A program made the position numbers and the translations under genes. Under the pieces are notes generated by a model. The model ran no database searches. It was not told where the DNA came from and saw only the letters and a list, made by a program, of their open reading frames with translations. Shown in pieces: positions 29,771 through 62,455 of a stretch of DNA of 64,000 nucleotides (position 1 is the first letter of the stretch; each line of letters opens with the position of its first letter). The stretch comes from Escherichia phage vB_EcoM_G2469, in sequence record MK327934.1; one strand, 5' to 3'.

Positions 29771-30402
29771 TGTTCGCCTCGTAACATGGCACCTAGTGCA
29801 CCGCCTGGATGGAACTTAAGGAAATCATTAGAGGTAAATCCACGTTCAGACGAAAGGTTGATAGCAAACGTATCGATAAGCGCTAACAACAATGTAGTGG
29901 ACATTGTCGGAGCTAAAGAGTTCTCGTCAACTTCTACCGCGATACCAGTACAGAACGTATAATCAAAAAGAGCTTCGTATTCTTGTGGAATGTCAGGGTT
30001 ACAATGTAACAGAATCTGTTTAACCTGAGGACGAATCATACGAAGATGTTTAGCAACACCTATCATTTCTTCAGTCTTACCAGAACGACTAATATGAATC
30101 AACACGTCATTAGGTGCAATAAATCCTGCGTCACCATGAGAATAATGCCCAGTGTTCAAATACATGCTAGGAATACCTAGTGAAGCAAATGTCTCGGAAG
30201 CTTTAGTTGCGATATTAGCATTCTTACCAACACCTGTAATAATTACCCGGCTTTCATAATTACTAAGTCCAGGGCGTCGAAGAGTTTCTAGAATAGCATT
30301 ATAACGAGCAGGGTTTTGACTAATTACTTTGGCCATAGCGGCCAAAGAAGAAGCTTGTTTTATGATTGCGTCAATAGCGATAGTAATAGGAGTAGTTTTC
30401 AT
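29767..30402 (-). CDS. SIS-domain sugar-phosphate isomerase (GmhA/KdsD-like)
   Basis: 211 aa; SIS motifs VGKNANIA and HISRSGKTEE. Confidence 0.75.
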   Translation of the reverse strand: MKTTPITIAIDAIIKQASSLAAMAKVISQNPARYNAILETLRRPGLSNYESRVIITGVGKNANIATKASETFASLGIPSMYLNTGHYSHGDAGFIAPNDVLIHISRSGKTEEMIGVAKHLRMIRPQVKQILLHCNPDIPQEYEALFDYTFCTGIAVEVDENSLAPTMSTTLLLALIDTFAINLSSERGFTSNDFLKFHPGGALGAMLRGEQ

Positions 30403-30442
30403 ATTTCTCTCATTTAATTAGTTTACCGTCCATGACATTATA

Positions 30443-33154
30443 TCAAAAATCGAACATATCGAACAGAGATGCTTTCTTCTCATAATCGAGTTTCGCTGCT
30501 GATGTGAATCCTTCAAGTGGTTTAATAAATGTCTTCTCAAGGAGAACAGTGTAGTCCATCCAATGAAGTACATCGTCTTTAATTAAATCTGTGATTTCAG
30601 TACCAGAAGGCCATGCGATACATTTATCACCGAATGGGTTTCCTTCACGTAAAGGCAGAACATATACTTTTTCACCTTCTACAACTTGTGGTGCATCAAT
30701 ATTACCTTTGATAGCTCGGTTATATGTCAGAATTCCACGAATATGGAACGGGCATTTAGGACCAGGGAATCCACCGACATCATATTTAGCAATGTTATTC
30801 GCAGAAGATACCGACGCGATGCTAATATAATTCAATTGACGGAATTCTTTTTCAAACTCTTTAAAATATTCTTGTAATGATTCTTCACCTTCTTGAAGCA
30901 TACGACGAATACATTCTTTAAGAGCTTTCTGTACTGCTTTAGGGGTCGAAGATTTCTGAGTTTCTAGACCCATGATTTTGAGTTTAGGCTCAGCGTAACG
31001 AGTACCTTCCATATCCCACACGTTTAATGCATAACGTTTCTTACCAGTCCAAAATCCACCAATACCTTTAGAACCGAGCGGAGGGCCAGCAATAGCTTCT
31101 CGGTCCATGAACATCAAATGTTGCTTATTATTCATGTATTCGCACATTTCACGGAAACCTCTATCAATAGCAGGTTCCATACGTTCACGAGCGAACTTAT
31201 CTAAGAAGTCTACCCAATGGTTGGTATCACGGAATTTAGATTCACCAACCTTATCAATAATTTTATCTGCAGATACGTAAATGGAGTCTGTATCACCATA
31301 AAGAACGAAAGCTTCACCTTCTGTACCGCAAACTTCATTCAGATATTCATTAACTTTACGTTCAATCCACTGTAAAGCCATTTGCCCGAATGTTGTGATT
31401 GCAGTAGCATTACGCAAATCATAATAACGGAACCAAACGTTTCCAAGTGCACCATAAAGCGAGTTGATGAGCAATTTACGGTTAATCTGTGCAGTCATAC
31501 CTGCAACTTCAGTACGTTGAGCTCTAAACAACATTTCATTAAGAGATTTAGCAGACAACTTTTTAATCTTTTCTTTAATCTCATCACTGAAGTCGAAACG
31601 ATAATCAACATCTAATGGTTCGTCAACAGAAAGATTAGGATTATGCAATGCCTCTTTAATTATTTCACCATTACGTTGAGCTGCAAGCATATAACCTTTA
31701 TGTTCTTTACGTTGATTAAAGACCTTAGTGATTTCAGTTGGAACTACACCATCACGGTCTTTATAATACATCATGCCGTTAGGAGAGCAACTGTACACAT
31801 CTGAAGGACGTTCAGCGATTGCGTTAATATAATCATGCAATGGAGCTACTTTAAACGTTCCTGCTATTGTTTCCGGGCTAATATTCACTTGGCGAATAAT
31901 ACTTGGATACAGAGATGTAAGGTCGAAACTCATTACATATTTGTATCGATTTGGAATAGGTTCCTTAACAAAAGCGCCGGGATAAGGTTGAACCGGGTGA
32001 GAACGACCTTGTGGAATCACCTTGTTCTGCTCTTTAAGGCTATTAAAAATAATAGCATCCCATGTTTTAATTGGGCTAAACACAGATTGAATCTGTATCT
32101 TAGCATAATAACCCATGTCCAAGCTCAAGTTGATGAACTGACGCTTAGCATCAATTTGCAATACACGATACACGTCGATAATGTTATAAGAAATATATCG
32201 TTGGTGATTGCTTTCACGAAGCTTAGAAATAGGGCCGTCATATTTCAGTTTACCAACGTTCAATTCAAATTCTGAAATGTAATCCAGAGAATACGACGGT
32301 TGATTGGTAAAAGAGAATTTTTTGTAAAGGTCAATGTAATCAAGAACAGAGATACCGAACAATGTAATGATTTCACGAGAACCATACATGTTTTCGATAA
32401 CTTTAACACGAGTTTTACGATGCGGTGATAAACGTTTCGCAGTAGATTCGCCAAAAATATTCTTGATTCGGTTATACACATATGGAATATCAAATGACTC
32501 AACGTTCCATCCAGTCAAAATGACAGGAGTTTTCTGTTGCCAGAAGTTGAGATATTCCATCAACAATTCTTTTTCGTTATCGAACGGCATATAAATGATT
32601 TTATCGATAATTTCAGATGGAACTTCATCACCACCTTGTTCTTGAAGCTTAGCCGCAATTTCGATAGACCATTCTTCTACATTACCATATGGAGAATTCA
32701 ATAGATCAAATACGTAGAACCTGTCGTCAATTGAGTCATAATGGGTGATAGCATCAATCGGATGTTTTGCTTGTGACGGCTCAGGGAACCCGTCTGGAGA
32801 TGTTACTTCGATGTCGAAGTTAGCCACACGAATTTTTGTATGGTCGTATTTGATTTCATAGTTATAAGTGTCAGACAAATACGCCAATTTGAAATCGTCC
32901 ATGCCAAGTGCTTCAAGTCCGATATCTTCCATGCGTTTAATCCATTGGGAGGCATCACGCATATTAGCGAACAACTTACGAGTACACGGCTTACCGTAGA
33001 TATCGAAATATTTCGTAGCCTGACTTTCTGGACAATGAGCAAACAGTGATGGTTTATATTCTACTTCACGAGTACGTTCACGGCCATTAGAATCGATGTA
33101 ACGTTCAAAAATTGAATCACCAATCTGTTCAACCGTTAAGTAAAATTCTTTCAT
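30443..33154 (-). CDS. 43: DNA polymerase (family B) with 3'-5' exonuclease
   Basis: 903 aa; exo FDIE, pol motifs DxxSLYPS and YGDTDS; RB69-type N-terminus. Confidence 0.97.
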   Translation of the reverse strand: MKEFYLTVEQIGDSIFERYIDSNGRERTREVEYKPSLFAHCPESQATKYFDIYGKPCTRKLFANMRDASQWIKRMEDIGLEALGMDDFKLAYLSDTYNYEIKYDHTKIRVANFDIEVTSPDGFPEPSQAKHPIDAITHYDSIDDRFYVFDLLNSPYGNVEEWSIEIAAKLQEQGGDEVPSEIIDKIIYMPFDNEKELLMEYLNFWQQKTPVILTGWNVESFDIPYVYNRIKNIFGESTAKRLSPHRKTRVKVIENMYGSREIITLFGISVLDYIDLYKKFSFTNQPSYSLDYISEFELNVGKLKYDGPISKLRESNHQRYISYNIIDVYRVLQIDAKRQFINLSLDMGYYAKIQIQSVFSPIKTWDAIIFNSLKEQNKVIPQGRSHPVQPYPGAFVKEPIPNRYKYVMSFDLTSLYPSIIRQVNISPETIAGTFKVAPLHDYINAIAERPSDVYSCSPNGMMYYKDRDGVVPTEITKVFNQRKEHKGYMLAAQRNGEIIKEALHNPNLSVDEPLDVDYRFDFSDEIKEKIKKLSAKSLNEMLFRAQRTEVAGMTAQINRKLLINSLYGALGNVWFRYYDLRNATAITTFGQMALQWIERKVNEYLNEVCGTEGEAFVLYGDTDSIYVSADKIIDKVGESKFRDTNHWVDFLDKFARERMEPAIDRGFREMCEYMNNKQHLMFMDREAIAGPPLGSKGIGGFWTGKKRYALNVWDMEGTRYAEPKLKIMGLETQKSSTPKAVQKALKECIRRMLQEGEESLQEYFKEFEKEFRQLNYISIASVSSANNIAKYDVGGFPGPKCPFHIRGILTYNRAIKGNIDAPQVVEGEKVYVLPLREGNPFGDKCIAWPSGTEITDLIKDDVLHWMDYTVLLEKTFIKPLEGFTSAAKLDYEKKASLFDMFDF

Positions 33155-33212
33155 TTAATTTCCTTTAGACGAGTTATTGTCTTTTGTTTGTTGATGAACT
33201 TATTATACTCCA

Positions 33213-33232
33213 AATGGGACCGAAGTCCCATT
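33213..33232 (-). promoter_or_regulatory. hairpin (aatgggac-UUCG-gtcccatt) followed by TATAAT
   Basis: lies between regA stop and gene 43 start; possible terminator or gene 43 control element. Confidence 0.4.
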
Positions 33233-33235
33233 GCT

Positions 33236-33604
33236 TTAATTACCAATTGTATATTTTGCTTTCAAAGTCCAGTCATCTTTCTGTTTAAAAGAGATAACAC
33301 GGAAGTTATTAGTCAGGCCAAACAGATCTTCACGAGCAGAGTCTTCAATAACAATCAATCCCCAGTCTTCAAGCAACTGAGCAATCGAATCACGTCGCTG
33401 ATAGTCTTCACCATCAATATCAACCTGACGTCCGTCCATACGCAGCATTTCTTTAAAGTGGACGATGTAATATTTACCTTGCTTTTGTAGGATATGACAG
33501 GACTGATAAAGAACTTTATCCTTGTTATTAGCGATGCCCATACGGGTCAGAGTCTCTTTGACTTTCAGAAAATCTTCGGGGTTCTTCAATTTAATTTCGA
33601 TCAT
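33236..33604 (-). CDS. regA: RegA translational repressor
   Basis: T4 RegA-like; start set to internal ATG at 33602-33604 giving 122 aa. Confidence 0.85.
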   Translation of the reverse strand: MIEIKLKNPEDFLKVKETLTRMGIANNKDKVLYQSCHILQKQGKYYIVHFKEMLRMDGRQVDIDGEDYQRRDSIAQLLEDWGLIVIEDSAREDLFGLTNNFRVISFKQKDDWTLKAKYTIGN

Positions 33605-33606
33605 TT

Positions 33607-34170
33607 TTACCATTCCAATGCTAATTTTTTAAATTGTTTTTGTTCTTTCACATTTTTTGTAACTTCTTTGAGAAACTCATCAGTGACCATGGCCTTCAGT
33701 TCTTTAAGGACTATTGGCAACTTGTTATTTTTTTCAAGGAGCCGCTTATACTCGGTAGCATCATTCATGTTGATTGTGTAATGTTTCATCAACAGTTTGA
33801 TAACTAGTAACTCTGAAGTGTCTTCAACTAGTTTAGCCCATTTAGAGAATCGACGACCACGCGGAATTGCAGCCATCATATAGTTGAAGTGCGCTTCATC
33901 ACTTAATTCAGAACCGACTAAGTTCATCATGTAAACAGCTGGCATACATTCCGGGAACTGGGATAATGAGTTCTCAACCATAAATTTTGAGTAGTCGACC
34001 TGAGCAATTGACGTAGATTTCTTTTCATTAATAGCATTAATGATTTTAAAGAATTCATTCTCAGGTTTTTCTTTAAACATGTCAGCACATTTTTGAATCG
34101 CATCAGCGTCGTTAGACTTCCATGCAATTTGGTGCTCGTTAAGTTGGACGTCATCATCAAATAAGTTCAT
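33607..34170 (-). CDS. 62: clamp loader small subunit
   Basis: 187 aa, same as T4 gp62; adjacent to gene 44. Confidence 0.85.
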
Positions 34171-35209: not shown

Positions 35210-35951
35210 TTAGAAGTCGTGAGTAGAATCGGCTTCCATCGCAATAACATAACTTACTTGAGAGCTTTCAAACTTGGCTGCAACTTTATCACCAGCTCCC
35301 CACAACATTACTTTATAGTTACCTGGCTGGATTTTCATATTAGCCATATTGATTACGAAGTTAAAGTTGTTAGAACCATCATAATCGGTAAGAGTCAAAG
35401 AATACTTAGGACGAGTTAGTCCAGAATCTTCAACTTTATTATAGCCATTGATAACAATTTTACCATCTTTATTTGTAATAGCAATTGTATCAATCTGAAG
35501 ACCACGTGAAACTCGAAGTAATTGTTGAAGGTCTTCGGCTTTAATTTCAGTAATCACAGAAGCCACCGGGAATTGAATTGGCTTATTAGGAAAAACAATG
35601 GTGCTCTTGTCAGCGGCAGGCCAATAAACTGTGGAACGTGTATCTGCAATTTTAATATTGCCATCAGTGTGCATTGAAATTTCAGCATCATCAGACACTA
35701 GACTCAAAATGCTTAAGAAGCTATTCAAATCATAAAGTGCTATCATCAGACACTAGACTCAAAATGCTTAAGAAGCTATTCAAATCATAAAGTGCTACGT
35801 CAAAATCAATTTCATCAGAGATATTTGCTTCCGCATAAGTGGTGCCATTAACTGCACGAGTCATAATAAATTTACCTTGACTCAGCAGAATGCCGGAGTT
35901 AATAGAGGCGAAGTTTTTCAGAATAGCGATAGTATCTTTAGACAGTTTCAT
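35210..35951 (-). pseudogene. 45: sliding clamp gene 45, frameshifted by a 55-bp tandem duplication
   Basis: fragments 35951-35730 (MKLSKDTIAILK...) and 35746-35210 together match T4 gp45; both repeat ALYDLNSFLSILSLVSDD. Confidence 0.8.
35688..35797. repeat. perfect 55-bp direct tandem duplication (2 copies)
   Basis: 35688-35742 is identical to 35743-35797. Confidence 0.9.
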
Positions 35952-36422: not shown

Positions 36423-36614
36423 TTATTCGTAGAAGTCGGTAACTGTCCATGCGGAATTGCGATTAGACATTATTTTATTATACTCATCTTTAAAAGCAGA
36501 TTTGAGCATTTGTTCAGTAACAATATGTTCTTCACCTGAAAACGTATTGGTCAAAACATATTTTTTAATTTCAGGGACAACGAGAAGATGTTGTCCGGTT
36601 GAATACTCCGCCAT
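36423..36614 (-). CDS. small hypothetical protein
   Basis: 63-aa ORF, ATG start. Confidence 0.4.
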   Translation of the reverse strand: MAEYSTGQHLLVVPEIKKYVLTNTFSGEEHIVTEQMLKSAFKDEYNKIMSNRNSAWTVTDFYE

Positions 36615-36638
36615 TATAAATCTCCGAGATTAAAGCAA

Positions 36639-36646
36639 TATAAATA
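36639..36646 (+). promoter_or_regulatory. late promoter TATAAATA on plus strand
   Basis: exact TATAAATA 45 nt upstream of the HNH ORF ATG; SD aagga. Confidence 0.5.
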
Positions 36647-36691
36647 GGTTTATCAATTTATCTGTTGCTGTATCAAATAAGGATTTAGTAA

Positions 36692-37408
36692 ATGAATTAT
36701 AACTCAATATACGAAAAGCTTATCACCAATGCTAAATCAAGAAGTTTAGATGGTTATACAGAACGTCATCACATTATACCACAATGTTTAGGTGGAAGTG
36801 ATGATGCTTTAAACTTAGTAGACTTAACACCGGAAGAACATTATTTGGCACATCAACTGTTGGTAAAAATCCATCCAGATAATGCCTCTTTAATATATGC
36901 CGCTCGTATGATGACCATATCATCTCCTAAAGCAGATAGAAGCAAAAACAAATTATTTGGATGGCTTCGACGTAAGAATCAAGAAGTTCAAAAGAACAAA
37001 GAATTCACTGCTGAAACCCGTAAGAAAATGTCTGAGTCTGCAAAAAATAAACCAAAGATTACATGTCCACACTGCGGTTTAACCGGCACTGAAGGAAACA
37101 TGAGACGTTGGCATTTTGATAACTGTAAACAAGGCCCTACGCCTAAAATAGTAAAACTTGATCAAGAAACAAAAGATAAAATAATTAAAACCATGGCCAC
37201 GAAAATTTGGAAAGAAGATTCTTGCCCGTTTTGTGGCTTAACTACTAAGTTATCGGCGTTAAAGCCACATATAAAATTCTGTAAATCAAATCCTAACAGA
37301 AAGAAAAAAGAGGACAAGAAAATTAAATGTCCTCATTGCGATAAAATAGGGATCCCTGCTAATATGCATCGTTGGCATTTTGATAACTGTAAACATAAGC
37401 CTCATTAA
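36692..37408 (+). CDS. HNH homing endonuclease with three C-terminal zinc-finger repeats
   Basis: 238 aa; HNH core ERHHIIPQCLGG...NLVDLTPEEHYLAH; CPHCG...RWHFDNCK repeated; opposite strand to neighbours. Confidence 0.75.
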   Translation: MNYNSIYEKLITNAKSRSLDGYTERHHIIPQCLGGSDDALNLVDLTPEEHYLAHQLLVKIHPDNASLIYAARMMTISSPKADRSKNKLFGWLRRKNQEVQKNKEFTAETRKKMSESAKNKPKITCPHCGLTGTEGNMRRWHFDNCKQGPTPKIVKLDQETKDKIIKTMATKIWKEDSCPFCGLTTKLSALKPHIKFCKSNPNRKKKEDKKIKCPHCDKIGIPANMHRWHFDNCKHKPH

Positions 37409-39093
37409 GAGGCTTTCATTACAGTAAATCGTCCAACTTTGCTCATTTGCAAATGTTGTCCATAAGCTTGTGGGTCATGGTCTCTGTGACTAATTATAAA
37501 CACGTTTGCATCGGTTAGAGAGTTAAGAATTGTTGAAATAGCTTTAATACCTTCAGAATCAGTCGCGGAATCCATGACTTCGTCCATAATTAATGTATTG
37601 ATTCTAACACCAGAGACCTTTTCAGCGATATCTCGCCATGTAAACAACAATGCGATATCGATACGTGCCTTTTCACCTTGACTAAATGAAGCATAACTGA
37701 ATTCTTCACGTCCACGTGATTTTATAGATTCATTGAATTCTTCGTCAATAGAAAACACGTAATCAGCTTCCATGATTTTAAGATAATGGTTAATCTGCTT
37801 GTTGAACAGAGGCACATATTTTTTAATGATAGCACCTTTAATACCAGAATCTTTTAACATATCTGTGATAATACCACGATGGTATTTTTCAAGAACGATA
37901 TCCGATTTTGTTTTAATGATTTTATCAAGTTCTTTTTGAAGCAAAGCTATCTCATCGGCATGGTCGATAAATTCCGCCGAGGCTTGTTCTATTGCAGCTT
38001 TAACTTTCTTAGCTTTATCAATAGTGGCAATCATTGCTTGTTTCTTGGTACGAATATCAGATGCAATGTCCTGTTTAGTCTTAACATTAGCTCTATATTC
38101 GTCCACTAGGACACTCAGATTATCTCTGTGACAGGTAAGTTGCTCGAATGAGTGATTACATTCATGAAGCTTATCGGTAATCTTAGAGACAATAGGATCA
38201 CCCTGGTGCAACTGTGATGCACAAGTAGGACATGTGCCGCCATCATGATACATCTTAATAACTTTGTTATATGAGTCAATTTTAGATTTAATCAAGAATG
38301 CTTCTTGTCCTATCTTGTTGAATGCCTCAGTAGGGTCTTCATCAAGAACGATATTAAGTAGTCGCTCATTAGCTTCTTCTATTTCTGCTTTTAATGAACG
38401 AGCTTCTTTGGCTAGGTCGTCATACATATTCTGTAGACGCGCTACATTATCACCAGATAATTTCTTTTGACGTTCGATATTCTCGTTATAAATCTTAATT
38501 TGTTGGATAACACCATCTTTCTTGGCATCGAGAACTTGTCCCTGGGAATTAAGTTCTCGAACTTGAGACTTATTGATTTTATCCATTTCAGCGAGTGTGC
38601 CGACTTCTAAAAGGTCTTCGACAAGTTTTCTACGAGCAGGGGTGCTAAGAGCCATGAAAGGGGTATACCCTGCCGTCCCAAGCACAACTATTTGTTTAAA
38701 AGACGCGTATGACATTCCGATGCTACGTTCAAATTCTTCTTGGAAGTCACGACTGCTGGCAGATTCATCGAGACGAACACCATCAACGGAGATTTCGAAA
38801 ATATTGGGCTTTTGGCCACGTCTAATGAAGTATTTTTTATCATCGAATTCCATCCAAAGCTCAACTAAGAGCTCTTTCTTGTTCGTGCTATTAATGATTT
38901 GTCCTTTCTTAACATCACGAAATGGTTTACCGAAAAGTCCGAAAGTAATGGCTTCTAACATCGTAGATTTACCACCGCCGTTTTTACCTGTGATTAAGGT
39001 CTTTTGGACTTTATCTAATTGGATATCGATAAAATTTTGCCCAACAGACATTATATTTTTATAACGAACACGATTTAATTTAAATGTTTTCAC
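37405..39093 (-). CDS. 46: recombination endonuclease subunit (Rad50/SbcC-like)
   Basis: 562 aa; GTG start; Walker A GKNGGGKST; T4 gp46-like. Confidence 0.9.
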   Translation of the reverse strand: MKTFKLNRVRYKNIMSVGQNFIDIQLDKVQKTLITGKNGGGKSTMLEAITFGLFGKPFRDVKKGQIINSTNKKELLVELWMEFDDKKYFIRRGQKPNIFEISVDGVRLDESASSRDFQEEFERSIGMSYASFKQIVVLGTAGYTPFMALSTPARRKLVEDLLEVGTLAEMDKINKSQVRELNSQGQVLDAKKDGVIQQIKIYNENIERQKKLSGDNVARLQNMYDDLAKEARSLKAEIEEANERLLNIVLDEDPTEAFNKIGQEAFLIKSKIDSYNKVIKMYHDGGTCPTCASQLHQGDPIVSKITDKLHECNHSFEQLTCHRDNLSVLVDEYRANVKTKQDIASDIRTKKQAMIATIDKAKKVKAAIEQASAEFIDHADEIALLQKELDKIIKTKSDIVLEKYHRGIITDMLKDSGIKGAIIKKYVPLFNKQINHYLKIMEADYVFSIDEEFNESIKSRGREEFSYASFSQGEKARIDIALLFTWRDIAEKVSGVRINTLIMDEVMDSATDSEGIKAISTILNSLTDANVFIISHRDHDPQAYGQHLQMSKVGRFTVMKAS

Positions 39094-39940
39094 TTAAATT
39101 TTTCCTCATGAATTCAGAAACTAAAGCCTGTAAAGAACTTTGTATAGGATATCCTAAATTGACTAAATTTTTAGAAAAAGTCACATATTTAGGTTTGTTC
39201 ATTTTAACCCATTCAACGTAAAGCATATCAAAATTTTCCCAATGATATCCTTTTCTTCTAGATTTCAAATGAGTGTCTCTAACTTTAGGATTTTTCCAAC
39301 TGCGTGAAACTCCAGCCGATAATGATTCTCTATATTCGGCTGTTTTAGATATTTTACGACAAGCATCCAAATGTTTTTGTTTATTAATAGGGTCACTAAA
39401 CCACTTTTGGGTCATAATAGAGACGGTTTCTTTAAATTCCTTTGAACTTGTCATAATTCTGTGTTTCTTTAAATTTTCCGGATTTTTAAACCATGCTTTT
39501 AAAGCTTGACTAATCTTAATTCTATTATCCTGATTGGAATAGTATAATGTCATTTTTATAGAATTAACTTTACAAACATTTTCGAATTCTAAAGAATACG
39601 CCTCGGCTATATTATTTAGTTCATGCGTTGTACAATTTAAATTAAATCGCCCGGTATACATTCTTTGAAGCGCGTTAATCATCTTATGGTTGCCAGTTTT
39701 TGCCAAAATGCTATGTGCAATAAAATGGTTATAATGACTTAAATGACACAAGTTCCATTTACATGTTTTAAAATCTGGAAAAATAGATTTTGGTAGTATA
39801 TGGTGAACCTGAGTCAGTCCTTTTACTTTATTAGTGGAATTAGTTTTTATAAAGTTTAAATACTCATCAAGTCCTTCCCACGAAGGGAAGGAGGTTTTAA
39901 GAATTTTATAAATTTGAGTTTCATAATCAGTCTTCGTCAT
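39080..39940 (-). CDS. HNH-like endonuclease
   Basis: HNH-like stretch QVHHILPKSIF...NLCHLSHYNHFIAH; start set to ATG 39938-39940 with gagga SD. Confidence 0.55.
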   Translation of the reverse strand: MTKTDYETQIYKILKTSFPSWEGLDEYLNFIKTNSTNKVKGLTQVHHILPKSIFPDFKTCKWNLCHLSHYNHFIAHSILAKTGNHKMINALQRMYTGRFNLNCTTHELNNIAEAYSLEFENVCKVNSIKMTLYYSNQDNRIKISQALKAWFKNPENLKKHRIMTSSKEFKETVSIMTQKWFSDPINKQKHLDACRKISKTAEYRESLSAGVSRSWKNPKVRDTHLKSRRKGYHWENFDMLYVEWVKMNKPKYVTFSKNLVNLGYPIQSSLQALVSEFMRKNLSENI

Positions 39941-40184
39941 TATACGCATCCTCAATACACGCTTCAGCCATTTTAAGAATAGAGCCGGGAGTATCGTTGT
40001 CCATTATATTAAAGCTAAATTCAATAGCCCAGTCGGTGCAGACATGAACTGCTTTAACTTCATTGCCTTCAACGCGTAATGGCTCAATCCAATACTTGAT
40101 AGTGTTCTCGAATCCATCATCATCTTTAACGTCCATTTCAACTTCAAGCCCAAGCCCAGCATTGTTAAATTCATCTAAAGTCAT
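39927..40184 (-). CDS. small acidic hypothetical protein
   Basis: 85-aa ORF, ATG start, 4-nt overlap with gene 47. Confidence 0.45.
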   Translation of the reverse strand: MTLDEFNNAGLGLEVEMDVKDDDGFENTIKYWIEPLRVEGNEVKAVHVCTDWAIEFSFNIMDNDTPGSILKMAEACIEDAYNDED

Positions 40185-42204: not shown

Positions 42205-42745
42205 ATAAAAAATCCAAACTAGGCGAATCGCTAACAACTTCCTTCTTTTCAGCCCCAGGAGCTTTATAAGCGGATTCTTCATAATGCGTCATTTTATCGT
42301 AGATGTCTTGAATAAACGTTTCATCTACCAACGCTACCATATCATCGTCATGACTGTCGTAGACATTATGAACGAAGTAACTATATTTCTTTGCAACTTC
42401 CTTACGTTCTTTTTTGATACGTTGGACAAAAGCATTAAAACAAGCTCGAGTTATGTATGCATGTGGGTTATTGTACTTAGTTTCGTCGAAATTATGAAGT
42501 CCCTTAATAGAGGCTTCAATCCCATCTGCAATCATCTCCTGCTTCCAAGACTGGGTATATCCTGAAAAGTTGAAACGTTTGGACAGGCCTTCGGCGATAA
42601 GCATAATTGCTAAACCGATGGTATCATTCTGACGAATAATTTTGTTTGGGTCTTTATTATTTAAGAGCTCCTTTTTCCACTCGATTATAGCGGCGAGAAG
42701 CTCTTTATTATTCACATAGTTATTTTTAGGTTTTTGTTCAGTCAT
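42188..42745 (-). CDS. 55: late-transcription sigma factor
   Basis: T4 gp55-like throughout; start at ATG 42743-42745 gives 185 aa as in T4. Confidence 0.85.
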
Positions 42746-42764
42746 AAGTACCTCTTGGCTCAAT

Positions 42765-42815
42765 TCATAGGTCTATTATATCATAATATTTAGAGACCTA
42801 TCTTAAAGCACGAGA
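42765..42815 (-). promoter_or_regulatory. promoter region for gene 55 (MotA-box-like TGCTTTA and TATAAT flanked by ataggtct/agacctat inverted repeat)
   Basis: read on minus strand. Confidence 0.4.
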
Positions 42816-42817
42816 TA

Positions 42818-43086
42818 CTATCGGAGCAAACAATAAGCCTGAAACACTTTTTCCATTAAACGTTTGAACTCATGGATATCGATATAAAGCTCAGTAAGAC
42901 CGGCATTATAAAGAAAATCTAAAAAGTTCTCATGTGTTTCGTTATAGTCGCCTTCGTTTAATTGAGATACATGAGTTTCCCAAAAACCAACACCTTTAAC
43001 GAATGGAAATACGTGACTTTCATGTATTCGTCAACATAAAATTCGCCCAGCTTTTCTTCAGTTATACTGATTCGAGTTAATTTCAT
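42818..43086 (-). pseudogene. probable frameshifted small gene (about 88 codons across two frames)
   Basis: ATG at 43084-43086 in ATGA overlap opens 42 codons; a 70-codon open frame with no start codon continues in the +2 frame to 42818. Confidence 0.35.
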
Positions 43087-43310
43087 TCTAGTTCCTTTGC
43101 TGCTTCAAGAGCAGCATCCAGCGAATCAAATTGGTCAACGAAATCAATATTCAACGCATCGTCAACCGTAGCATATAACCACCATTGTTTGAATTCGTAT
43201 TCTAGAATAAATCCAGGACCTTCAATCTGAGGAAGACCTAGACTATTTGTACCAACTTCGTAACCAGCTAGACGCAGGTCATTAATCAAAGTTTCTGTTA
43301 ATACGCTCAT
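43083..43310 (-). CDS. small acidic hypothetical protein
   Basis: 75-aa ORF, ATG start. Confidence 0.5.
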   Translation of the reverse strand: MSVLTETLINDLRLAGYEVGTNSLGLPQIEGPGFILEYEFKQWWLYATVDDALNIDFVDQFDSLDAALEAAKELE

Positions 43311-43639
43311 TTTACCGCCTTAACAATTTTAAGGTCAACGAATTTTTTCTTACGTTGATTTTTCATACGACGGATAGTCTTTTCAGAGATTTCATGTTTC
43401 TGATAAGCTTTAGATTCAACACCAAATGCAGCAACGTCAAATTCAGAAAGAATATATTGTACTAGAATTTCACGAATAGAATTACGTCCAATTTTCTGGT
43501 CGTGTTTTTGCATGATTTCATAAAGACGGAATTCCCACGCATCAAGAACTTGAGGAGTAACAATATTGCCAGATTCCAGAAGAGCAACAACTTTATCGAA
43601 AGCGAAAGAATTAACTACGTTTTTGATTTTAGTAGACAT
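43307..43639 (-). CDS. hypothetical protein
   Basis: start moved to ATG 43637-43639 with gagga SD. Confidence 0.5.
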   Translation of the reverse strand: MSTKIKNVVNSFAFDKVVALLESGNIVTPQVLDAWEFRLYEIMQKHDQKIGRNSIREILVQYILSEFDVAAFGVESKAYQKHEISEKTIRRMKNQRKKKFVDLKIVKAVK

Positions 43640-43676
43640 ATTATTTTCCTCGGTTATTTTATTATCCAACGAGAGA

Positions 43677-43706
43677 ATTATACTCATCTCTCAAGAGTTT
43701 GTATAC
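43677..43706 (-). promoter_or_regulatory. early-type promoter (GTATAC -35, TATAAT -10)
   Basis: -10 flanked by gagag/ctctc inverted repeat. Confidence 0.45.
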
Positions 43707-43945
43707 TATTTTTTAAGCATGAAAAGTAAGTAATTTGTATCACGTGGAGTAATATCAACACCCATATCAAAGATGCCTTTATAGATTGGGTATTTGTTTT
43801 CGGTTGTATCGAAGCTGAAACTATTTCCATCACAACTAACAGTAATAGCATCTGTTAAAATGTCATACTCAATCCTAACAATTGAATCCCCAATTTTAAC
43901 GTCGAGGTGTTTTTTGAATTTGATAAAATCTAATTCTTGGGCCAT
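43706..43945 (-). CDS. hypothetical protein
   Basis: 79-aa ORF, ATG start. Confidence 0.5.
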   Translation of the reverse strand: MAQELDFIKFKKHLDVKIGDSIVRIEYDILTDAITVSCDGNSFSFDTTENKYPIYKGIFDMGVDITPRDTNYLLFMLKK

Positions 43946-43976
43946 GATATTTTCCTCATTTTAAGACGATAGGAAG

Positions 43977-44005
43977 ATAATAACATGTCTTCCTATCGTT
44001 GTACA
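43977..44005 (-). promoter_or_regulatory. early-type promoter (TGTACA -35, TATTAT -10)
   Basis: -10 flanked by gataggaaga/tcttcctatc inverted repeat. Confidence 0.45.
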
Positions 44006-44008
44006 TTA

Positions 44009-44209
44009 TTAACCGAACTTTTTAGCGCCTTTCCAGCCTTCGTACATAACTGCACAAGTCAGTAGTACAGCGTGCTGGCATTCTTTGTATTTGTAAATCC
44101 AGAACCAGCGTAAGAAGTCTTCATCCTCAACGCCGTTGAGTTTCATATTGGCAAAGAATTCGGCACGTTCTTCACGAAGCTTTTGCGATAACATAGATTC
44201 AGGATTCAT
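44009..44209 (-). CDS. small hypothetical protein
   Basis: 66-aa ORF, ATG start. Confidence 0.45.
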   Translation of the reverse strand: MNPESMLSQKLREERAEFFANMKLNGVEDEDFLRWFWIYKYKECQHAVLLTCAVMYEGWKGAKKFG

Positions 44210-44340
44210 TTTGTGTTCCAGGCCCCATTTTCATCGATGAACTTAATCCAGTCATTTACAGACCATTTAGTTGTATCACCCTTTGGATTAACATTTAAAG
44301 TATATAATCCCTGCTTAAAAAGCATTCGTTTGATATTCAT
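44206..44340 (-). CDS. small hypothetical protein
   Basis: start moved to ATG 44338-44340 with gagg SD. Confidence 0.35.
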   Translation of the reverse strand: MNIKRMLFKQGLYTLNVNPKGDTTKWSVNDWIKFIDENGAWNTK

Positions 44341-44347
44341 AATTTCC

Positions 44348-44641
44348 TCAACTGTAACGATAACATTCGTTAGCTTTACGTTTGGCTTCAGTATGAGAAG
44401 TATTATAATCATACTCTTCTTTACTGTAAACATCTTTTTTCAACTTACGAACTTCTTTGCGGAGTTGTCGATTCATTTCGTTCTTGACTTCAGAATCAAC
44501 GCCTTTCATACGTTTCCATTTATCTGAGCGGAAGATGTTTTCAACCATGTCTTTGTGGCTAACACCGTCAGGAGCTTTACGCTTACCAAAATAGTCGTAA
44601 TCGCGAACTTTCAAATCTTTACGACGATATGTTTTACCCAT
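44348..44641 (-). CDS. basic hypothetical protein
   Basis: start moved to ATG 44639-44641 with gagg SD; Lys/Arg-rich. Confidence 0.4.
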   Translation of the reverse strand: MGKTYRRKDLKVRDYDYFGKRKAPDGVSHKDMVENIFRSDKWKRMKGVDSEVKNEMNRQLRKEVRKLKKDVYSKEEYDYNTSHTEAKRKANECYRYS

Positions 44642-46177: not shown

Positions 46178-46648
46178 TTAATCATGTTTCCACACCCCAT
46201 CGGTATTTGACCAAAGTCGCTGATTATCTGATCCTCGCCACAGCTTTTTAGTCGGAAGATTTTTCTCATACTTCCCATCAATAATAACATCAACATATTT
46301 AAGCATTTCTAGTTGTTTAATATCTTCAAACTTATATCCTGTCCACAACCAAATGCTTTTATTGGGATAAAGATTTTTTACTGTTTGAGCAATGCAATGA
46401 ATAACATCTCGGTTATCAGGATAGAGAGGGTCACCTCCGGTTATAGTTAATCCTTCTATATAATCATTATTCAAACATTCAATTAATTGTTCTAGTGTTT
46501 CACCAGTGAATGGAACACCATTTCTAGCATTCCATGTTGATTTATTATAACACCCTTCGCATTTATGCAAACAACCCGTAACGAAAAGAACGACCCTGCA
46601 TCCGGGGCCATTCACAAAATCGCAAGGATAAAATCTATCATAATTCAT
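46178..46648 (-). CDS. nrdG: anaerobic ribonucleotide reductase activating protein (radical SAM)
   Basis: 156 aa; CxxxCxxC-type cluster TGCLHKCEGC. Confidence 0.9.
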   Translation of the reverse strand: MNYDRFYPCDFVNGPGCRVVLFVTGCLHKCEGCYNKSTWNARNGVPFTGETLEQLIECLNNDYIEGLTITGGDPLYPDNRDVIHCIAQTVKNLYPNKSIWLWTGYKFEDIKQLEMLKYVDVIIDGKYEKNLPTKKLWRGSDNQRLWSNTDGVWKHD

Positions 46649-48462
46649 TGGTGTTTAACCCTATGCATGATTTCTTTATTTTTACCGAGATTAAATCCGC
46701 GTTCGTTCGGATTTCCCAAATAACCGCATGTTCTTCTTATGGTGTTCATCTTTTTAGGATCAGTTTCTCCACAGATAGAACAAACAAATCCGTTTTCAGT
46801 AGGAGTCATTTCATGGGTACTTCCACATGTAAAACATTTATCTACTGGCATATTAACACCAAAATAATCTAAATGTTGTGCAGCATAATCCCAGACGGCC
46901 TCAAGTCCTTTTAAGTTATTTTTCATATCAGGAAGTTCAACATAAGAAATGTGACCACCTGTCGCAATGAAATGATATGGCGCTTCACGAGAAATCTTTT
47001 CAAACGGAGTAATATTTTCTTCTACTGAAACGTGGAAACTGTTAGTGTACCAGCCTTTATCGGTAACATCTTTTACACTTCCATATTTTTCTGTATCGAG
47101 TTTACAGAAGCGATAACAAAGGTTTTCAGCAGGAGTAGAATACAAACTAAAAGCAAAACCAGTTCTTTCAGACCACTGTTTAAGATGAGCATTCATTTTA
47201 GTTAAAATTTCTTGTCCAATATCACGACCGACAAGAATATTCAATTCGTGAATACCAATGTATCCTAAAGACACTGAACTTCTACCGTTTTTAAATAACT
47301 CAATTATGTCGTCATCAGGTTTAAGACGAACCCCGAATGCACCTTCTTGGTAAAGAATAGGAGCAACAGTTGCTTTAACACCCTTTAAAGAACTAATTCT
47401 ACACATCAAGGCTTCAAAACACAGATCCATTCGTTCATTAAACAATTCGATAAATTTCTGTTCATTGAACTGTGTTCCAATATAAGAATCTAATGCGATA
47501 CGAGGAAGATTCAGTGTTACAACACCAAGATTATTACGTCCATCAAGAATTTCATTACCGGTTGAATCTTTCCACACACTCAAAAAACTGCGGCAACCCA
47601 TTGGAGAAACAGGAATAGATGAGCCGGTGATAGCTTTATTGTTCTTAGCTGAAATAATATCAGGATACATTCTTTTGCTTGCACATTCTAACGCAAGTTG
47701 TTTAATATCATAGTTCGGATCATCTTTATAAAGATTAACACCTTCTTCAACAAACATAACAAGCTTAGGGAAAATAGGAGTTATCCCATCACGACCAAGA
47801 CCTTTAATACGATTTTTCAGAATTGCTTTCTGAATCATTCGTTCAGTCCAGTCAGTTCCCGTACCAAATGTAATTGTTACAAAAGGCGTTTGCCCGTTTG
47901 AACTAAAGAGAGTGTTTACTTCATATTCATAAGCTTGGAATGCATCGTATACATCTTTTTCTGTTTTAGATTGAGCATAATTCAACGCATCAGCGATTTG
48001 CCATTTTTCTGCATCCTCAATATGTTTTGCATAGGTGCGTTTAACATAAGGAGAAAGTACTTTATCTACATTAGCAAAAGTCGTTCCGCCGTATTGGTGG
48101 GAAGCAACTTGTGCAGTAATTTGTGCCATAATTGCAGTAGCAACACCAATCGATTTAGGCGTTTCAATTTGAGCATTGCCTAATTTAAATCCGTTCTCAA
48201 GCATCCCCTTTAAATCGACTAAACAGCAATTAGTAAATGGAAGAGCAGGGGAATAATCAATATCGTGGAAATGGATAATTCCGCTTTCATGTGCTTTCAT
48301 AATAAAAGACGGGACCATATTTTTGGCAATGTGTTTAGACACAATACCAGCCATAAGGTCCCGTTGAGTTGGAAAAACACGAGAATCTTTATTAGCATTC
48401 TCGTTTAAAAGGTCTTTATTAGTTTTATTAATCAGTCCTTCAATTTCTTTTTCAATTTTCAT
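46645..48462 (-). CDS. nrdD: anaerobic ribonucleoside-triphosphate reductase
   Basis: 605 aa uninterrupted; C-terminal glycyl-radical motif RTCGYLG and zinc site CFTCG...CSIC. Confidence 0.95.
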   Translation of the reverse strand: MKIEKEIEGLINKTNKDLLNENANKDSRVFPTQRDLMAGIVSKHIAKNMVPSFIMKAHESGIIHFHDIDYSPALPFTNCCLVDLKGMLENGFKLGNAQIETPKSIGVATAIMAQITAQVASHQYGGTTFANVDKVLSPYVKRTYAKHIEDAEKWQIADALNYAQSKTEKDVYDAFQAYEYEVNTLFSSNGQTPFVTITFGTGTDWTERMIQKAILKNRIKGLGRDGITPIFPKLVMFVEEGVNLYKDDPNYDIKQLALECASKRMYPDIISAKNNKAITGSSIPVSPMGCRSFLSVWKDSTGNEILDGRNNLGVVTLNLPRIALDSYIGTQFNEQKFIELFNERMDLCFEALMCRISSLKGVKATVAPILYQEGAFGVRLKPDDDIIELFKNGRSSVSLGYIGIHELNILVGRDIGQEILTKMNAHLKQWSERTGFAFSLYSTPAENLCYRFCKLDTEKYGSVKDVTDKGWYTNSFHVSVEENITPFEKISREAPYHFIATGGHISYVELPDMKNNLKGLEAVWDYAAQHLDYFGVNMPVDKCFTCGSTHEMTPTENGFVCSICGETDPKKMNTIRRTCGYLGNPNERGFNLGKNKEIMHRVKHQ

Positions 48463-48932
48463 TTTAAACTCTTTCTAAGCTGCTTTTTGAATGAAGCTAT
48501 TAATTGTGTTTTAGTATCAGATTCATTATATTCAAATCCTCTTTGAAGCATCTCGGTCATCATTTCCTCTTTACCTAGTCTTGAGAACTCTTTAGTTTTG
48601 TCTGGAACAAAATTAGGATGGATATTATTAGCAGAATAATCTTGTTTCAAATAAGCAAGAAGAGCTTCAAGCCATTCGAGGTAGTCGACATCACGACCTT
48701 TAAGACCAGAACGGTTGAACTTATGCTTCATTTGGCCTTCTGCTGCGTTGCACAGAGAACAGAGTAACCCACGAACTCTACCGGCTTTTGGCCCGTTTAA
48801 TTCATGGTCGTGGTCAAGATGGTTACCTTGAACATCAGGGTCTAATTCACGGTGGCAAATAGGACACTTACCATTCTGTGCATCATAAAATTTTTGTTTT
48901 TCTTCTTTATATTTTGCGCCTGATAATAACAT
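48459..48932 (-). CDS. 49: endonuclease VII (Holliday junction resolvase)
   Basis: 157 aa; zinc and H-N-H motifs CPICH...HLDHDH...CSLCN. Confidence 0.85.
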   Translation of the reverse strand: MLLSGAKYKEEKQKFYDAQNGKCPICHRELDPDVQGNHLDHDHELNGPKAGRVRGLLCSLCNAAEGQMKHKFNRSGLKGRDVDYLEWLEALLAYLKQDYSANNIHPNFVPDKTKEFSRLGKEEMMTEMLQRGFEYNESDTKTQLIASFKKQLRKSLK

Positions 48933-48967
48933 GATAAACCCTTACCTTAAATAGATAAGGGTATTTA

Positions 48968-49393
48968 TTAACTTAAACGTCTTTCTAAATATTCAATGTA
49001 TTCTGCGGCTGCTTGCATCAGGTTACCTTCATAGCCGTCGTTATTTTCTTGTCCGGCTAATTTAGCTAATGCATAAGAAATTCGTTCACCTTCGAATTCA
49101 CCAAGTTTACTACCTAGCACATCCGCAATATCAGCCGAATCAATTTCTTCGAGTTCATCTATTGAATGTGATTCCCAGAAGCACCAAAGAGAAGTATCAC
49201 GGTCATAGATGCAAAGTTTCTCACCAGTATTCAACATCACTTCAATAATGCCATGGTCGCCATAACCATCTTCGGTCGTAGTACCAATTACCTTGATGAT
49301 TGTATCTTTCTTTAATTCAGGAAACTTATCTTGGAGTTCTTCGTCATCTTTAACAATCTTGAACCACTTACCACGTGTGTCAGAAATATTCAT
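48968..49393 (-). CDS. acidic hypothetical protein
   Basis: 141-aa ORF, ATG start. Confidence 0.5.
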   Translation of the reverse strand: MNISDTRGKWFKIVKDDEELQDKFPELKKDTIIKVIGTTTEDGYGDHGIIEVMLNTGEKLCIYDRDTSLWCFWESHSIDELEEIDSADIADVLGSKLGEFEGERISYALAKLAGQENNDGYEGNLMQAAAEYIEYLERRLS

Positions 49394-49693: not shown

Positions 49694-50050
49694 TTAGCCC
49701 CGGAGTTTATTGAGCTCTTCATAATCAATCCAGGATTCTAGCCCTGACGGCAGATCACATTCAATGTTCCACAGAAGCTCTTCAATGGCTTGCAGGCGAT
49801 TATATTCTTCAACGGTAATGGTAACCATTGGTGCAACCGGTTCTGCCTTTTTAACCATCATATCGTTCATCAGGACGTAAAGGCCATCACGAACGACAGT
49901 GTCGTTCCAACCCCATGATTTGGCTTCGTAAGCTAATGATGAAGGGAGCACATTTAAAACTTCAATAATAGTTGGAGCATCAGGACCAAGTTCATTGGCA
50001 CAAACTTCGTATACATCTTGGAAATCTTTAAGATTTAATGAATATGTCAT
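49694..50050 (-). CDS. hypothetical protein
   Basis: 118-aa ORF, ATG start. Confidence 0.5.
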   Translation of the reverse strand: MTYSLNLKDFQDVYEVCANELGPDAPTIIEVLNVLPSSLAYEAKSWGWNDTVVRDGLYVLMNDMMVKKAEPVAPMVTITVEEYNRLQAIEELLWNIECDLPSGLESWIDYEELNKLRG

Positions 50051-51971: not shown

Positions 51972-51999
51972 AATATTTTCCTCTCGTTAAGATAAATTC

Positions 52000-52028
52000 A
52001 TTATACTCCAACCATCCTTGGTTGTACA
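52000..52028 (-). promoter_or_regulatory. early-type promoter (TGTACA -35, TATAAT -10) with ccaaggatgg spacer element
   Basis: same spacer element as at 8355 and 8913. Confidence 0.45.
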
Positions 52029-55116: not shown

Positions 55117-55145
55117 ATAATAACATGTTTAAAGCAAAAGTAAAC
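55117..55145 (-). promoter_or_regulatory. early-type promoter GTTTAC-N17-TATTAT with MotA-box-like TGCTTTA in spacer
   Basis: read on minus strand. Confidence 0.5.
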
Positions 55146-55147
55146 AA

Positions 55148-55369
55148 TTATTTGCGACGAGATTTTTTGGTAAGAGGTTGAAAGAACACTGCTTTACCGG
55201 CTGGGGTTAAGGTGACTCGTAATGCATTACCGATTCCTAAGGATGCTTTAACTAGACCTTTAGCTTTCAGTTCACCGAATGCTTGACGTTGGTCTGCATC
55301 ACGAGTGTTAACCATAAGACCTTTATCACCGGCTTCACGAATCATTTCTAACATTTTGGTTTTCATTTT
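55148..55369 (-). CDS. small hypothetical protein
   Basis: start moved to ATG 55367-55369 with aggag SD. Confidence 0.45.
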   Translation of the reverse strand, partial: KMKTKMLEMIREAGDKGLMVNTRDADQRQAFGELKAKGLVKASLGIGNALRVTLTPAGKAVFFQPLTKKSRRK

Positions 55370-55394
55370 GTTCTCCTCTTGTTTTGATAGGTCT

Positions 55395-62239: not shown

Positions 62240-62455
62240 TTATTGATAAAATGGAGTTAAAGCCCAAGATTCTTTAGATACTATATTGGCGAAATGCCTC
62301 ATCTCTTCAATTTGGCGACGACGCTGGTCAGCATAGTCTTCTTCGCCTTCTTCCTTACAATCTTCAAGGTCTTCTTCAAGATACTTTAAGTATTCACTAC
62401 AAATTTTGTTGACCTTTTCTTGGAAGTCCAATAACCCAGTAATAGTAGAAGCCAT
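62240..62455 (-). CDS. small acidic hypothetical protein
   Basis: 71-aa ORF, ATG start. Confidence 0.45.
   Translation of the reverse strand: MASTITGLLDFQEKVNKICSEYLKYLEEDLEDCKEEGEEDYADQRRRQIEEMRHFANIVSKESWALTPFYQ

Follow-up and report, generated by a model that had tools for sequence, protein, structure and literature searches.

T4-type phages need a sliding clamp, the product of gene 45, for replication as well as for late transcription. The clamp of phage RB69 is the closest described protein to the one considered here and has been crystallised (PDB 1B77/1B8H). A second described system that bears on this locus belongs to genome assembly rather than to phage biology. When the path through a de Bruijn graph is circular, the assembler outputs it as a linear contig in which the first k bases are the same as the last k bases. 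In SPAdes, the end overlaps of circular contigs measure 55, 77, 99 or 127 bp, and they are normally trimmed at finishing. End overlaps produced by the SPAdes version that was used in the study behind the present record were cut manually by another group (PMC9583785), and in a further paper contig ends 'overlapping by 55 bp' serve as proof that the sequence is circular (PMC8851603). Re-opening of genomes is treated in the Phage Annotation Guide; the pitfall of an untrimmed overlap is not. In the literature we found only general statements, and none of the papers found explicitly describes a k-mer duplication left inside a record after rotation of a contig. This class of finishing error is familiar; its internal form after rotation is less so.

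Phage vB_EcoM_G2469 (MK327934) is a Mosigvirus with a genome record of 170,452 bp and a coverage of 429x (Korf et al. 2019, Viruses 11:454, Table S4; PMC6563267). It was isolated from pig manure on plates and put through host range tests, and it has been deposited under DSM 103258 (Korf et al. 2019). Both PacBio and Illumina sequencing were used in that study; the Illumina genomes were assembled with SPAdes 3.12.0 "(55kmer)", and the assemblies of circularly permuted T4-like genomes were "arranged according to" published relatives (Korf et al. 2019, PMC6563267). The sequencing platform of each individual phage, Illumina or PacBio, is not given in the paper or its supplements. The window analysed here consists of the first 64,000 nucleotides of this record. 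Its gene order 62-44-45-rpbA-45.2-46 is that of Shigella phage Shf125875, in whose annotation each CDS is called similar to its counterpart in RB69, and by megablast the gene 45 region matches Mosigvirus genomes (RB69-like phages) at 97-99% identity. Bases 1-120 of the window are identical to bases 1-120 of vB_EcoM_MM02 (MK373784), another T4-like phage of the same study, in which the first CDS occupies 1-2214 on the minus strand. The common start of the two records shows that the assembly was rotated to a reference layout. The features of the window to which the text refers are as follows.

1-120, no strand: re-opened genome start; the record's first base falls at the stop codon that ends the first CDS, which is on the minus strand.
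35210-35951, minus strand: true gene 45 (sliding clamp); minus one 55-bp copy it is a 687-nt ORF of 228 aa.
35730-35951, minus strand: N-terminal gene 45 fragment (QBO62750.1); 73 aa, consisting of clamp residues 1-70 followed by STL and a stop.
35210-35746, minus strand: C-terminal gene 45 fragment (QBO62749.1); 178 aa, consisting of MI followed by clamp residues 53-228.
35743-35797, minus strand: copy A of the repeat; upstream in the sense of the gene 45 mRNA, in frame, encoding residues 53-70.
35688-35742, minus strand: copy B of the repeat; downstream in the mRNA sense and entered out of frame, giving S-T-L-stop.

An earlier note on this DNA had described a perfect 55-bp tandem duplication within gene 45. 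Direct comparison bears this out: bases 35688-35742 equal bases 35743-35797 at 55 of 55 positions with zero spacer, and Tandem Repeats Finder agrees (period 55, 2.0 copies, 100% matches, 0% indels, score 222). The duplicated 55-mer is TCATCAGACACTAGACTCAAAATGCTTAAGAAGCTATTCAAATCATAAAGTGCTA. In full, identity at period 55 extends over 111 nt, from 35687 to 35797, which allows the repeat junction to be placed between 35741 and 35742 or between 35742 and 35743, an ambiguity of 1 nt. With a slash marking the boundary of the copies, the junction reads ...AAATCATAAAGTGCT / ATCATCAGACACTAG... or, in a second rendering, ...TTCAAATCATAAAGTGCT / ATCATCAGACACTAGAC... The one additional matching base at the edge of the repeat is a chance match. 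A perfect repeat of a 55-mer is not attainable by chance within 64 kb. A scan of the 64-kb window at all periods from 12 to 399 found no further perfect two-copy tandem duplication. When the window was aligned to MM02 by megablast, the alignment broke exactly at 35742, where the subject steps back by 56 nt.

The duplication shifts the frame of gene 45 by +1, and two ORFs of 73 and 178 aa result. Since 55 leaves a remainder of 1 on division by 3 (3 x 18 + 1), the annotation pipeline met a frameshift here and predicted two CDS, both of which were deposited under the name 'putative sliding clamp'. The ORF list gives these fragments the same coordinates as the earlier note had done (35951-35730 for the N-terminal and 35746-35210 for the C-terminal piece), and the peptide that was said to be carried by both, ALYDLNSFLSILSLVSDD (residues 53-70), is indeed present in each. 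In Pfam, the 73-aa fragment matches positions 1-73 of the 116 positions of the DNA_PPF profile (E 4.6e-17), and the 178-aa fragment matches DNA_PPF positions 55-115 together with the complete gp45-slide_C domain (E 8.6e-45). As deposited, DNA_PPF is thus cut at about profile position 73, and positions 55-73 occur twice. In an exact-sequence protein look-up, the 73-aa and 178-aa sequences were found in vB_EcoM_G2469 only.

Deletion of one copy had been expected to give a single gp45 of about 228 aa. The ORF obtained in this way encodes a protein identical to RB69 gp45 (AAP75962.1, CLAMP_BPR69), a sequence found on 447 contigs, and it matches the crystallised RB69 clamp at 228 of 228 residues. 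DNA_PPF and gp45-slide_C stand together in one chain of about 228 aa only after one copy has been removed. In its single-copy form gene 45 of G2469 therefore has the same 228 residues as RB69 gp45, whereas the deposited gene is in two pieces that share residues 53-70. Without the duplication, this is an unremarkable gene of the gp45 clamp family.

The earlier note had also proposed an alignment to related T4-like genomes, and this alignment places the insert in G2469 alone. In a phage collection that excludes MK327934 itself, the region of the gene 45 junction has matches in 153 related records. Every one of them is aligned as two pieces, with a span of about 56 nt, and so contains a single copy; one continuous alignment across the junction, as expected for a record with the duplication, was obtained for none in the collection. 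The 35-mer at the junction had zero matches in IMG/VR, and the fragment was absent from a contig index of public sequencing runs. These results bear on the possibility that the duplication is genuinely present in phage DNA, either in a defective sub-population maintained by wild-type helpers or as a new mutation in the lysate that was sequenced. Recombination is very active in T4-type phages and can give rise to tandem duplications. The duplication is, moreover, present in the record as deposited, and two free-standing homing endonuclease genes lie less than 4 kb from gene 45, where they could provoke double-strand-break repair nearby and thereby, in principle, rearrangements. However, none of the 153 related records carries the insert, and a minority defective allele would not be the sole path in the de Bruijn graph at a coverage of 429x. 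A clamp-null phage forms no plaques, yet G2469 was isolated, propagated and deposited; with an essential gene inactivated, its isolation on plates, host range testing and deposition would not have been possible.

The length of the repeat unit, 55 bp, is equal to the k stated for SPAdes in the study, and it suggests how the duplication may have come about. G2469 would be one of the Illumina/SPAdes genomes of the study. At k = 55 the de Bruijn graph that SPAdes builds from its circularly permuted, T4-like genome would form a closed circle, and SPAdes would output this circle as a linear contig with the same 55-mer at both ends. The break point of such a contig is arbitrary, and in this case it would have happened to land in gene 45. 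The contig would next have been rotated by the authors to the start of published RB69/T4-like genomes. If the old ends were joined at this step and neither copy of the overlap was removed, two adjacent 55-bp copies would be left inside gene 45, and copies A and B would be the two ends of the original SPAdes contig.

This explanation makes a prediction that was tested: other T4-like genomes of the study should each hold one perfect 55-bp tandem repeat, at some other place. Scans at periods 12-399 covered 383 kb in total, made up of the 64-kb window of G2469, the 169,201 bp of MM02 and the first 149.6 kb of vB_EcoM_G2285 (MK327933). Over its whole length MM02 has a single perfect tandem duplication, which is 55 bp long and located at 121220-121329. 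It splits the essential gene 29, which encodes the baseplate hub and tail-length determinator, into MM02_00204 (82 aa) and MM02_00205 (446 aa); with one copy removed, gene 29 is a single ORF of 590 aa. G2285 likewise has, in the part scanned, a single perfect tandem duplication of 55 bp, at 103157-103266. This one lies near the 3' end of the essential portal gene 20, which is annotated as two CDS, of 511 and 38 aa, both named 'putative portal vertex protein'; after removal of one copy the portal protein has 523 aa, the length of the MM02 portal protein. Thus, each of the three T4-like genomes examined has one perfect 55-bp duplication, and these lie at unrelated loci, in the essential genes 45, 29 and 20. 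Apart from these 55-bp repeats, the 383 kb contain no perfect two-copy duplication at the periods scanned. The sister repeats are also peculiar to their own records. At the gene 29 site the duplication occurs in MM02 only, the other 149 of 150 matching records being single-copy, and at the portal site G2285 alone, of 692 matching records, was aligned in one piece; the close relatives among the matches listed there span 255 nt, which corresponds to a single copy. In a small siphovirus from the same study, vB_EcoS_MM01 (MK373793, 43 kb), there is no 55-bp duplication inside the genome and no overlap between its ends. The defect is therefore not universal in the study, and the MM01 result is consistent with the mixed use of PacBio and Illumina or with occasional trimming.

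The repeat length that equals k, the repeats of the same length in the sister genomes, the absence of the insert from relatives and the rearrangement step in the published methods together argue for an assembly or finishing artefact. On this comparative evidence the duplication in gene 45 would, with very little room for doubt, be the untrimmed SPAdes end overlap of k = 55 in a circular assembly that had been rotated, and it is almost certainly not a real biological feature. A genuine duplication in the phage DNA is very unlikely: it would have to be exactly as long as the assembler k, and it would have to coexist with duplications of this same length at unrelated loci, in different essential genes, of two sister genomes. 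More improbable still is a technical error that had nothing to do with k, for example chimeric molecules in the library, faulty polishing or a slip in manual copying and pasting. The authors did rearrange their sequences by hand, and a manual join is also a part of the explanation favoured here, but exactly 55 bp three times in three genomes would be unexpected from an unrelated error, and chimeric reads do not persist in a consensus at 429x. Four causes had been put forward when the duplication was first noticed. Of these, only an assembly or sequencing artefact is supported; a defective genome, a heterogeneous population and an engineered change are not.

It is also conceivable that the duplication is physically present in packaged DNA and is tolerated, the match to k = 55 and to the two sister genomes being a coincidence. 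A working clamp would then be made by ribosomal recoding, through a +1 shift or a 55-nt hop, or would be assembled as a split clamp from the 73-aa and 178-aa fragments. For each codon of copy A the same codon is available 55 nt downstream as a landing site, such that a hop would restore the exact wild-type protein, and the fragments overlap by 18 residues, with an ATG at the start of the downstream ORF. Against this, the insert is found in no relative, hence nothing about it is conserved, and the first in-frame stop is three codons past copy A (after AGC ACT TTA), not directly after a take-off codon. Independent translation of the downstream ORF is not favoured by its leader: the native gene 45 start has AAGGA 8 nt upstream, but no Shine-Dalgarno sequence lies at a workable distance before the ATG of the 178-aa ORF, where there is only GAG, 13 nt upstream. 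A split clamp would be broken inside the N-terminal DNA_PPF domain, at about profile position 73 of 116, and not between the domains. Finally, gene 29 of MM02 and gene 20 of G2285 would each need a comparable tolerance of their own. Taken together, we give this possibility next to no weight. If it were true, a 55-nt hop would be a second, spontaneous example of bypassing of the gene 60 type. The biological readings of the duplication are effectively excluded, and the untrimmed overlap is the explanation retained below.

The remaining core replication genes of the window had been described as intact, and their lengths agree with this. The ORFs for primase (340 aa), helicase (480 aa), UvsX (390 aa), DNA polymerase (903 aa), gp62 (187 aa), gp44 (320 aa), gp46 (562 aa) and gp47 (339 aa) all have the same length as the corresponding annotated CDS of MM02.

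Several mobile genes and variable segments were also observed. Between gene 45.2 and gene 46 the window has an insertion of 806 bp (36610-37415) in place of 67 bp in MM02. It includes an ORF at 36692-37408 on the plus strand, opposite to its neighbours, for a free-standing homing endonuclease of 238 aa (PHROG 655, E 7e-67); at the equivalent place G2285 has a plus-strand CDS of 717 nt (38035-38751). A second insertion, of 826 bp against 215 bp in MM02, occupies 39093-39918 between gene 46 (37405-39093) and gene 47, and here an ORF on the minus strand (39080-39955) encodes a homing endonuclease of 291 aa that also belongs to PHROG 655 (E 3e-31). With these two insertions gene 46 is flanked by two related mobile endonuclease genes. 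Repair induced by a homing endonuclease was considered as a cause of the gene 45 duplication and was rejected, as it explains neither the exact k length nor the sister genomes. In G2285 the annotation describes several interrupted genes, among them those for DNA polymerase (a group I intron with an ORF), nrdD, nrdB (with an HNH endonuclease inside) and thymidylate synthase (with an intron endonuclease). Within the pieces of MK327933, the interrupted genes lie at 29902-33703 and 46415-49277 of piece L007 and at 37759-40026 and 42678-44554 of piece L009. Unlike those of G2285, the polymerase (903 aa) and NrdD (605 aa) of the window are uninterrupted; mobile introns and endonucleases evidently vary widely among these close relatives. 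Segments of the window that do not align with MM02 or that differ from it in length were located at 48238-48457, 49697-50046, approximately 51974-52026, 55127-55380 and 62247-62449. They probably represent the small, variable ORFs that are common in the early regions of T4-like phages.

The true genome of G2469 would probably be 170,397 bp long, with one copy of the 55-mer and an intact clamp of 228 aa. On this account the record MK327934 exceeds the true length by 55 bp, and its two 'putative sliding clamp' proteins are spurious; both fragments have already reached UniProt (A0A482GHH4, A0A482GAQ3). MK373784 and MK327933 have the same defect, in gene 29 and in the portal gene respectively, and further genomes among the 27 T4-like ones of the study may be affected. 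The duplication has no biological importance, and its relevance is to data quality. Pseudo-frameshifts of this kind can mislead pangenome and core-gene analyses as well as analyses of 'defective phages', and automated scans would flag them. All artefacts of this class would be caught by a simple filter for perfect tandem repeats with a length equal to a common assembler k (21, 33, 55, 77, 99 or 127).

Two known systems resemble the gene 45 interruption. The likeness to T4 gene 60 is superficial. There a 50-nt hop bypasses part of the message, and in both cases about 50 nt interrupt a replication gene that a T4-type phage needs, with matching codons that flank the gap. The G2469 insert differs in that it is not conserved and has no stop directly after the take-off codon in copy A; it is a mere copy of the neighbouring sequence, with the length of an assembler k. 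Programmed translational bypassing of the gene 60 type was rejected, given that the insert is present in no relative and that its stop is misplaced. The untrimmed end overlap of a de Bruijn assembly is a far closer likeness. Like the repeat in G2469, such overlaps are perfect copies with a length equal to k, and they occur once per genome at an arbitrary position. Usually the copies occupy the ends of the record and are frequently mistaken for short direct terminal repeats. In contrast, the copies in G2469 are internal and adjacent, because the contig would have been rotated before it was trimmed, and in this position they mimic a frameshift mutation in an essential gene.
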